This document shows positions 44,880 to 47,800 of a stretch of 64,000 nucleotides of DNA, piece by piece. The notes beneath the pieces were generated by a model, which saw only the letters and a program-made list of their open reading frames with translations, ran no database searches and was not told the origin of the DNA. This DNA comes from Octopus vulgaris (taxonomy: Eukaryota), in NCBI GenBank assembly GCA_951406725.2, contig OX597818.1:7812001-7876000 (forward strand). Reading direction: 5' to 3'. Within the stretch, counting starts at the first letter, position 1. Each line of letters starts with the position of its first letter. A program made the translations under genes and the position numbers.

Positions 44880-47800
44880 GTAAAACTAAAGACGAAGACA
44901 TGTGTAGGAGCAACAAGAAGGTGTAATAGTTTGACGTTCGGGAAAAATGGAGCCTACTCTTTTCGACAGAAAGTAATAAGGGGGAAAGAATACAGAAAAT
45001 AGGAAAACAGACGGAGATTGAAAACAACAATGCACAGTTCAGCAGTCACGCGGCGTATGACTGGTTAAAAGGGGTTGGCTGAAAGGAGGAAAATAATAAA
45101 AAATAGGTTGAATGAGAGATAATAATGGTGATGCTACCGAACTAAGGTGCATGAGCGTGTGTGTGTATGTGGGAATGGTTTGTAAAAGTGTGTATGTGTG
45201 TATGTGAGAAAGAAGTCGTGTGAGTGACGTATGTGCGTGTGTGTGTGTGTGAAACGTATGTGGGTATATGTGTGTGTTGTGTGTAGCAGTTGATGTGTGT
45301 TTTTTCAAGTGGTATATGCACATGTATATGTGTGTGTATGTGTCTGTGACCGATTAGTGCGCATATGCATACTGTATGCTAGTAGGTGAGTTATCTTTGT
45401 CTATGCGTGTTGAGGGTGTGTATATATATATTCTTTTCTACTCTAGGCACAAGGCCCCAAATTTTGGGGTAGGGGGCCAGTCGACTTGATTGACTCCAGT
45501 ACTCAACTGATACTAAATTTCTCAACCCGAAAATGATGAAAAGCAAAGTCGACCTCGGCGGAAATTGAACTCAGAGCATAAAGACAGACGAATTAACCAA
45601 TTTCTTTACTACCCACAGAGGGGACAAACAAGGACAGATAAACGGATTAAGTCGATTACATCGACCCCAGTGCGTAACAGGTACTTAATTTATCGACCCC
45701 GCAGGATGAGAGGCAAAGTTGACCTCGGCGGAATTTGAACCCAGAACGGAACGGCAGACGAAATACCGCTAAGCATTTCGCCCAGCATGCAAACGTTATT
45801 TCTGTATTGGCCACAAAAGTCTAAACATAGAGGGGACAAACAAGGAAAAACAAAGAGATTAAGTCGATTACATCGACCCCAGTGCGTAACTGGTACGTAA
45901 TTTATCGACCCCGAAATAATGAAAGGTAAAGTAGACCTCGGCGGGATTTGAACTCAGAACGTAACGGCAGACGAATTACCTATTTCTTTACTACCGACAA
46001 CGGGCTAAACACAGAGACGACAAACAAGGACAGACAAATGGATTAAGTCGATTATATCAACCTGAGTGCGTAACTGGTACTTATTTAATCGACAGCGAAT
46101 GGATGAAAGGCAAAGTCGACCTCGGCGGAATTTGAACTCAGAACGTTGCGGCAGACGAAATACCGATTTCTTTACTACCCACAAGGGGCTAAACACAGAA
46201 GGGACAAACAAGGAAAGGGAAACGGGTTAGTCGATTACATCGACCCAAGTGCGTAACTGGTACTTAATTTATCGACCCCGAAAGGATGAAAGACAAAGTC
46301 GACCTCGGCGGAATTGGAACTCAACATAACGGCAGACGAAATACGGCTACGCATTTCACCCGGCGTGCTAACATTTCTGCCAGCTCGCCGCCTCGTGTGT
46401 GTGTATATATTGTCTGTGTTTAGGTATTATGTGCTTGTGAGGGTGTGGGAGTGTGCTTGGTGGTGTTTGGTGTGTGTACAGTGAAACAGTGTGTGGCTGC
46501 TTGTATAGTTGTATGTGTAGTGACGTTTTTGAAGATTGTTGGTGGGTGTGTGGATAATGGTGTGGATGAAGTGGTCGATGCTAGTGTGTGTGAAGTGGAA
46601 ATATGTTGTGGGTTTGTGTGGTGAGATGAACAATGTGCGTGTATAGTGGTGCGTATGTGGTGAGGGTACGAAGGTGGACGGTATGAAGGTGGAGGGGTAG
46701 TTGAATGCGGGAGGTTTGTGGGAATTCGTGTGCGGTTGGTGTCAGATAAAGAGTCGAGGTTAGTTGAGCCAATATGTAGTAAAGGAACGAGGAAAGAAGA
46801 TTAATTCCTTTTCACAGAGAAGGTGGGGTCGGGGTGGTCCCAGTGCTGAGGCAGTCCGAACACAGATGTAGCTAATAACCGGTAGAGCGGAAGTGGTTCG
46901 AGACTGGGATGTCATTGCCGAGTCTGATGTCTCGGTGTTGCTCCGCGATACCGCAAGCCAAACGGCGTTCCGTTTGACCGATGTACATGGAAGGACAGAG
47001 AGAGCAGGAGATGCAATAAATAGCATTACTAGAGGTGCAGGTAAGGGAGTGTGTGACGTGATAGGGACGGCGATAAGTTCCTGTGAAGATGGTGGTACAG
47101 GCAAGGGTGATAGCGTAGGAGCCAGGCTGGGAGGCGGGTGTAAGGAAGAAACTGCGGACCATGATGTAACGCAGATTACGGGGTCGTTTGAAGGATGGAA
47201 AGCGTAGGTTAGGGAAGATGTACGAGGTGGAGGGGTCGAACTGGAGTCGCCAGAATGCTAGGAAAACTGTGCGTTGGAGGGGTAGGGTGGAAGGGTGGTA
47301 AGTGAGGGGAAGCAGGAGACAGGTAAGGGTGGGGCGGGTGCAAATAGAAAGAGAAAACGTATGGTCTACAGATCGTGCCCGGTCAAGGGCAGCGCAAAAA
47401 CTGGTGAGGGATATTCACGTAGGATGAAGTGACAAGCCATGAGATGAGGCTAAGATTCAGAGTCATGGTCGTCTCCGTAGAACCTGCGTAGAAAGAGAAA
47501 TTGTGAGTAAAGGATGGAGAGCTTGGTATAGGTAGGGTGGGAGGAGGAAGAGGAGGAGAATTTAAGGTGGGAGAGTAAGTCAGTGTGTTTGTAGTGGATG
47601 GAAGTATTGATAGCACAGTGGGGGATACTAACAGAAATGTCGAGAAATTCGACGGAAGCGTTAGAGATAGTTTAGGAAAATTCGAAGGCAGGACAAAGAG
47701 AAGGAAGGAGTCCAATTGCTCACAGGAGAGTGAGGTCGCGCCAATACAGTCATTGATATAACGACCGTATATGAATTGTGAGAAAATTTAGTCCTCAACG

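Follow-up and report, generated by a model that had tools for sequence, protein, structure and literature searches.

Here, we analysed a family of short interspersed elements (SINEs) in the octopus genome whose copies join one another head to tail at one particular base. At this junction, the end of a copy carrying a certain tail, called tail 1 in the following, runs directly into the loop of the head of a related copy, and this loop junction is a real, genome-wide feature that occurs far above chance. We consider it fairly probable that tail-1 SINEs insert at one head-loop base of older relatives and that they mostly pair with the resident and overwrite its head. Insertion of tail-1 copies into resident SINEs is directly visible in a minority class, comprising about 2% of the elements.

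SINE arrays in the window

The window, a stretch of 64 kb from Octopus vulgaris, contains four array loci (Table 1). The underlying SINE is built from a head of 47 bases, counted as far as the loop, a common body of about 113 bases and one of at least three tail types, giving a monomer of about 230 bp; with 90,570 exact matches to the tail-1 end and 13,228 to the tail-2 end in a 2.8-Gb genome, it is short, non-coding, interspersed and present in high copy number, as expected of a tRNA-derived SINE. Target site duplications (TSDs) of variable length were found for 41 of 96 monomers with tail 1, for 20 of 73 with tail 2 and for none of the shifted controls. A- and B-like boxes were seen in the head by eye only, and from their position we take the junction loop to be the putative anticodon-arm position of the tRNA-like head. 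Octopus SINEs of tRNA type, named OK, OR1 and OR2, were reportedly described by Ohshima and Okada in 1994. ARAGORN predicted no tRNA gene in the 64-kb window, and Rfam returned no family at gathering score for the focal five-unit array. No catalogued ribozyme family was found within 45300–46500 up to E = 10, which speaks against a retrozyme or ribozyme-processed tandem element with a catalogued fold.

Table 1 Features of the window, with positions counted from its first base.
Feature	Position	Strand
Focal array: full SINE head (A box, 5′ hairpin arm) of young tail-1 type with GCGTAGCC marker	46346..46392	-
Focal array, unit 1: body and tail 1; 5 differences over the 113-base body	46165..46345	-
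Focal array, unit 2: headless from the loop base; tail-1 subfamily in common with the first unit at 36107-36290	45981..46164	-
Focal array, unit 3: headless from the loop base; GGCCAAT-type variant tail running into the A box of the next head	45798..45980	-
Focal array, unit 4: body and tail 1 minus 14 bases, preceded by a head remnant (from about position 15)	45599..45797	-
Focal array, unit 5: likely resident; old, without head, tail 2 (88% to the tail-2 majority)	45431..45598	-
Dimer head-body-tail 1 / body-tail 2; junction 29688/9; within a 16-bp TSD with 2 mismatches	29507..29957	-
Dimer tail 1-tail 1; junction 36290/1; within a 16-bp TSD-like repeat (2 mismatches) starting at the tail end	36040..36490	+
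Dimer tail 1-tail 2; junction 62152/3; no TSD found	61930..62318	+
Decayed non-SINE element with tail-1-like hairpin end; multi-copy (41 matches)	17873..19200	-

A preliminary description of this DNA had reported the four arrays together with six junctions at the loop, all of which were confirmed in position. Two further observations were borne out as well: the last units with tail 2 at 45431 and 62153 have diverged further than the units upstream (81% and 86% versus 88–94%), and a TSD at 29507/29942 brackets the array with 14 of 16 bases matching. Beyond this, a second TSD-like repeat, again matching at 14 of 16 bases, surrounds 36060–36474, and at the seventh junction (45797/8) a variant tail runs into a head within its A-box region, at about head position 15–18. 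The idea that the GAAATA of the tail re-forms the hairpin stem had to be given up, as the fold reaches only −1.8 kcal/mol (z = −1.05) and is no better than those of shuffled sequences.

Read along the minus strand, the focal array consists of head, units 1 to 3, the A-box junction, a head remnant and units 4 and 5. The five units are not copies of one another, and the array is likely a record of serial landings, not of duplication; at its flanks lies a weak low-complexity 12-mer (45416–45427 / 46399–46410). No contig piece of four other organisms spanned the array (44900–46900), where paralogous copies swamped the alignment. The ratio of summed contig depth between the junction base and the body next to it, which is no measure of copy number, amounted to 0.91 in organism C, 0.88 in D, 0.13 in E and 0.04 in F. 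In E and F, junctions per body are thereby about 7–20-fold fewer, and these ratios hint at a recent spread of the junction and an older body. Elsewhere in the window we noticed incomplete, old members of the SINE family that carry tail 3 or tail 2 (35314–35473, plus strand; 40115–40211 and 32692–32712, minus strand) and frames of 335 aa (near 5458, plus strand) and 438 aa (near 32000–33350, minus strand) that by eye resemble reverse transcriptase fragments of other LINEs.

A single junction base across the genome

An exact 23-mer across the junction of tail 1 and loop has 29,914 matches in the genome, and tail 1 followed by GGTA and a base other than T has 4,536; the reversed controls of both yielded none, and the reversed control of the tail-1 end pattern yielded 155 against 90,570 real ends. 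We further classified 94 tail-1 ends, drawn from the window itself, from 20 random 10-kb stretches and from another 40 stretches picked on the tail only: 46 join the loop base, 3 lie at most 15 bases off, 2 run into the A box and the other 43 lead into non-SINE DNA. With 46 of 51 tail-1-to-SINE joins on one base, the single junction peak that had been predicted is present. After tail 2, the loop motif followed in 2 of 208 cases. Exact matches to tail 1 followed by a tail-2-type body start numbered 4,711 and those to tail 1 followed by an intact head 1,752, a ratio that is inflated because the head pattern holds an extra CpG. Most loci lie within the first 50 Mb of C1, and their choice by exact patterns favours young copies; unselected sequence accounts for only 264 kb. 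Elements 130–330 bases from a locus edge, low-complexity TSDs, heads more than 40% diverged at positions 3–17 and, where stated, loci picked on downstream sequence were dropped.

A second junction type leads from a GGGCAAT or GGCCAAT tail to the A box at about head position 15 and was seen, besides 45797/8, at L116, L127 and L026. It fits the AGAA preference of this tail. A tail variant two bases off tail 1 ran into AGAA(T) or the A box at 11 of 31 terminal ends in our sample and joined the loop at 0 of 31, and the GGGCAAT tail was found at the loop seven times among the first 100 matches listed.

Of 35 TSDs of tail-1 copies, 17 begin exactly where the tail ends and 26 no more than one base away from it. 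At non-SINE sites, the pre-insertion target is G in 25, G in 23, T in 29, A in 23 and T in 19 of 35 cases at its successive positions; upstream of the nick, no base preference was detected among the 35 off-SINE targets. The same word that opens these target sites, GGTAT, is held by the SINE head loop. A weight matrix derived from 62 off-SINE ends leads to an expectation of 0.7–0.9% of insertions at loop sites. Among 93 tail-1-first elements, 2 were nested insertions (5 of 247 in a larger set) and 43 were seamless arrays running into a SINE at the loop, the latter being above the 20% that marks one-target elements of the Tx1-Mar/SINEU type. The nested class is thus within two- to threefold of what the motif alone would yield, and the seamless arrays need a further cause of about 50-fold. 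The target word is also found in the SINE body read antisense and in a further repeat, and both are secondary hot spots. Antisense tail-1 copies at L072 and L078 (about position 1500) sit in another SINE body at GGTACTT with TSDs of 14–19 bp, and three tail-1 copies (L051, L052, L127) end at one GGTACTGGCA site of another abundant repeat.

Nested insertions, seamless arrays and array growth

A search pattern of resident loop, at most 22 bases and new head gave 165 exact nested sites. The set studied here comprises 30 loci, of which 25 are those of 30 fetched loci that passed the nested filter and 5 came from unselected loci; the 30 loci chosen for nesting were kept out of the frequency counts. 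In this layout, an old head and a duplication of about 14 bp from the loop flank a young full-length copy. Head divergence is 0.170 for the resident and 0.050 for the new copy, body divergence 0.027 for the first and 0.111 for the last unit (present in 25 loci), and some last units are 14–20% diverged beside first bodies at 0–3%. The duplication begins at the loop G and has a median length of 14.5 bp; non-consensus TSD bases reappear after the tail in 31 of 34 cases, and two of the 30 loci are without real duplication (0 and 4 bp). At L145, an outer TSD surrounds the old resident and an inner one the invader. TSDs had been expected only around whole arrays, which the inner TSDs of the nested class contradict. 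Homing of young tail-1 copies to older residents, as put forward in the preliminary description, agrees with these TSD-marked insertions at the loop of old residents, but not with the young tail-1 heads of the seamless arrays. Doubled heads at the loop site, formed by head-plus-TSD segments with a period of 59–65 bp, were noticed at L096/L097, L102, G000:C6:120813005 and G000:C11:19231495.

In 74 arrays ending in tail 2, the first bodies are diverged by 0.041 and the last by 0.080, compared to 0.042 for tail-1 monomers and 0.100 for tail-2 monomers, in line with the prediction of older 3′-terminal units. The last units are star-like: none of 2,701 pairs shares three or more rare non-CpG changes and 10 pairs share two, which does not exceed the monomer controls, so that they appear as independent units and not as offspring of one dimeric master. 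In a separate count, the last units of arrays were assigned to tail 1 in 53, tail 2 in 48 and tail 3 in 2 cases, with 8 unclassed. A dimeric family of the Alu or B1-dID type with one composite master was rejected, given the older last units and their unlinked changes. Chains of a different kind, with full-head tail-2 monomers in direct succession, were seen at L129 (6175–7214) and L046 (5417–5950).

The heads of seamless arrays are diverged by 0.077 (n = 69), those of tail-1 monomers by 0.079 (n = 95) and those of tail-2 monomers by 0.141 (n = 64), and the tail-1 head marker occurs in 18 of 69, 27 of 95 and 0 of 64, respectively. Resident-like heads make up at most 28% of the seamless arrays (bootstrap bound), and the array heads have no clear 5′ gradient. 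Since these heads are young and of tail-1 type, the head of the resident was not kept: either it was overwritten or lost, or the array was copied whole. Outer TSDs were found for 35 of 74 arrays as against 41 of 96 tail-1 monomers and begin with the tail-2-type words AATAT or ATTAT. Their mismatch is intermediate (1.49 versus 1.02 and 1.74 per 14 bp) and leans old in the totals (35/314 versus 25/356 and 26/197); within a class, however old the units are, it does not change accordingly and therefore cannot date the insertion, for which reason we rejected it as a clock.

Arrival of an array as a whole, be it from a composite source or by template switch, requires a parent locus that carries the private changes of the last unit. 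For six old last units, the best non-self matches reached 88, 82, 86, 91, 89 and 84% (88% over a part for the sixth), with 40 of 3,659–6,184 candidates scored per query; neither a parent nor a sibling was found among these 40, and focal unit 5 had no close relative among the 40 scored of 4,593 candidates. Upstream units are at 93–96% of their majority, so a parent would be expected near 90%, which excludes one for L250, L281 and L288 among the 40 scored candidates; for the window, L289 and L292, identity alone cannot separate a sibling at about 90% from near-consensus copies. Private bases shared with the top matches amounted to at most 4 of 18 (window), 8 of 19, 7 of 19 and 2 of 10 (L289) in a base-by-base check that covered four of the six last units (window, L250, L281 and L289). 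The source locus may be absent from the sequenced individual.

In a sample enriched for junctions, 118, 32, 7, 4, 1 and 2 arrays had two to seven units, respectively. Among later pairs, 25 of 90 have at least two private bases beyond position 30 in common, compared to 15 of 146 among first pairs, and sharing between later units falls from 24 of 56 at the 5′ end of the unit to 11 of 82 at its 3′ end. The 5′ half of an internal unit often resembles the unit that follows, and its 3′ half and tail the unit before it (e.g. L239), which points to duplication of a period across the junction. Local duplication with a 184-bp period thus lengthens many arrays of three or more units. Local unequal crossing-over, named in the preliminary description as part of what would refute homing, accordingly holds for the lengthening of many arrays with more than two units and not for the junction itself. 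A test for TSD footprints was not significant at the first junction (p = 0.21), and the signal at later units (p = 0.0003) was discarded as a TSD trace and ascribed to duplication, because the sharing reaches past the TSD. A small SINE-derived satellite, in which the tail-2 motif occurs six times at a 101-bp period, lies at G000:C1:15779647-15780173.

Explanations and related systems

But, how could a SINE come to land at one base of its own head? In the reading we favour, the enzyme of an L1/Tx1-type LINE would start to copy the SINE RNA at a set base where the tail ends; a tail shared between SINE and LINEs is observed. The target sites open with GGTAT exactly at this base, and the head loop has this word too. 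The source RNA may read through into the next unit (GGUAUUUC...) and would thereby pair with the nicked head over far more than 5 bases, which could make heads a landing site about 50-fold more often than expected from the motif alone, in a self-reinforcing manner. In the nested class (about 2%), the 5′ end is joined without homology, and an old head, a TSD of about 14 bp and a new full head result; in the rest, the cDNA end would anneal to the start of the resident head and replace it, or a doubled head would soon collapse. Many arrays of three or more units have then grown by duplication of the 184-bp period across the junction. A more specific form of this idea, which we regard as quite possible if somewhat short of probable, is an RNA-guided, self-homing SINE in which the 3′ flank sets the target of each copy and, after a first landing in the head loop, the read-through guide matches more than 100,000 relatives and resident heads are converted to the young sequence.

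It counts against the favoured reading that whole-array copying predicts the young heads directly, whereas homing needs an extra overwrite step. Such copying could start from a rare nested insertion that combines a young promoter with an old body and tail, the read-through RNA of which would be retrotransposed whole from tail 2. Heads and first bodies as young as those of tail-1 monomers and bearing tail-1 markers, outer TSDs of tail-2 type that are as frequent as in tail-1 monomers (35/74 versus 41/96) and a nested frequency (2%) near the motif-only chance all speak for this composite copying. We nevertheless hold it to be unlikely: hundreds of active sources would be needed with last units as star-like as observed (0/2,701), last units 14–20% diverged stand beside first bodies at 0–3%, and the 40 scored candidates each for six old last units included no parent or sibling. 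Distinctly less probable still is a template switch at the loop from tail-2 RNA to tail-1 RNA, or ligation of loop-cleaved RNA, with the new chimera inserted at a fresh site. It would account for the young head, the diverse last units and the tail-2-type outer TSDs, and a tail-1-type 5′ part is found in 13 of 35 canonical last units versus 7 of 41 monomers (Fisher p = 0.17, typed units). However, the predicted donor with the private mutations was not found among 40 scored candidates per query, and the TSD-marked nested class and the GGTAT targets outside SINEs are left unexplained; of a cleaved-RNA or circle route, the genomic DNA gave no sign. We see hardly any room for one dimeric master with an inherited junction and longer arrays by unequal crossing-over. 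Local duplication is real in longer arrays (25/90 later pairs; 24/56 falling to 11/82), and in this respect the explanation stands; as the origin of the junction it is refuted by the unlinked last units, which are older (p = 3e-5), carry several tail types and share no diagnostic changes, and by nested TSD insertions that arise independently, with the five focal units not being duplicates either.

Which machinery moves the SINE was addressed in zf-RVT LINEs, of which 40 3′ ends were sampled from the top 150 of 25,802 candidates. Tail 1, without poly(A), was present at 24 of the 40, the best pair agreeing at about 42 of 48 columns, and the LINEs concerned have frames of 1,100–1,150 aa. We presume that they are of the L1/Tx1 type. 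An endonuclease of one particular Tx1 family that recognises the SINE head, by analogy with Tx1-Mar and SINEU-3, could set the site in the main, leaving RNA pairing a minor role; this is a possible though doubtful account and is compatible with the favoured reading. Family-specific recurring flanks and tandem stacking of tail-1 LINEs and their passengers argue for it, as does the site specificity known from the Tx1 clade (PMC4494074). Against it, the loop motif was found at 0 of the 40 sampled LINE ends, and all 50 variant-tail junction loci inspected (30 + 20) were SINEs with no LINE at the loop, one pattern search giving 0 matches; moreover, the off-SINE match extends over only about 5 bases, too little for a 50-fold enrichment. 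As far as sequence can tell, read-through pairing and endonuclease preference would both fit the present data.

Multimers of SINEs, SINE-derived satellites, a similar array in a clam and target-specific SINE/Tx1 pairs are already known. R1 of Drosophila rDNA inserts at a fixed bottom-strand site with 14-bp TSDs and forms re-insertion arrays, and in its model the 5′ join is precise if RNA and upstream target are homologous and otherwise leaves a TSD with variable ends (Stage and Eickbush 2009, PMC2718515). It shares with the octopus SINE the fixed site, a TSD of about 14 bp, the tandem arrays and the two 5′ outcomes; according to the relevant parts of that account it differs in being autonomous, in its rDNA target, in the TSD between tandem units and in a deletion of 9 bases, whereas the octopus SINE has its own head as target, headless units and about 47 bases apparently replaced. 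In crocodilians, SINEU-3, which is paired with Tx1-Mar LINEs and presumably moved by Tx1-type machinery, forms sequential tandem insertions at one site (Kojima 2015, PMC4494074). The strong preference for one site in a repeat is the same; the sections on these elements describe a Mariner transposon target, poly(A) and a TSD sandwiched between tandem copies, and there a LINE sharing the SINE site is shown, in contrast to none among the 40 LINE ends sampled here. TSD-(SINE)n-TSD arrays in the clam Scapharca broughtonii, about 3% of its SINEs, were proposed to arise by unequal recombination (Martelossi et al. 2024, PMC11481361). These mollusc arrays likewise open with a unit that has its full head, continue with head-truncated repeats and lie within one outer TSD, but, as far as they are depicted there, have truncated internal tails (PMC11481361), while octopus arrays involve about half of the tail-1 elements and have complete tails, older last units of other subfamilies and nested TSD insertions. 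In squamates, SINE-derived satellites consist of tandem part-SINE units with SINE ends on both sides and arise by local duplication (Vassetzky et al. 2023, PMC10702118); tandem growth of part-SINEs is similar, and the pertinent passages describe no fixed site or self-targeting. For SART1Bm, a match between RNA 3′ end and target improved accurate priming in an assay, with R1Bm cited likewise (PMC7265360). Both are, according to that source, autonomous site-specific LINEs with assayed pairing, unlike the octopus SINE, in which pairing is proposed from its arrays; the 5′ joins of R1 and the pairing of SART1Bm would thus serve as analogies for the corresponding steps. The pertinent passages of a 2026 genome annotation do not mention arrays or self-insertion (PMC13282606), and its repeat library may hold the present SINE family. 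In the open-access literature, we found no description of a SINE that targets a single base of its own head and replaces this head.

The feature is likely a variant of known site-specific retrotransposition. A landing that overwrites the front end of the resident would account for the head-to-tail chains, which number in the tens of thousands and could seed satellite-like DNA. If our favoured reading is true, a non-coding element would gain heritable site specificity via its own flank, with no new protein and while rewriting older copies, and would provide a natural model of retroelements turning site-specific. It would also be a model for the poorly understood 5′ joining, with the same site showing both seamless and TSD outcomes across thousands of loci, and for the way in which dispersed SINEs turn into satellite arrays, while fresh promoters would spread through an old family. 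SINE ages and subfamilies would then be mosaics, which would affect repeat dating in the genome.

Among the other elements, the one at 17873–19200 has an ORF1-like zinc knuckle by eye, with no reverse transcriptase seen, and a shared flank (ACTTTGG...) follows 6 of 19 of its relatives (L384-L402), which suggests a different fixed target or stacking for this passenger family. Families of zf-RVT LINEs have their own recurring 3′ flanks and head-to-tail stacks about 5.3 kb apart, e.g. at G000:C2:73.046-73.068 Mb; recurring flanks or stacking were seen at L408-L412, L415, L417, L419 and L423-L433.
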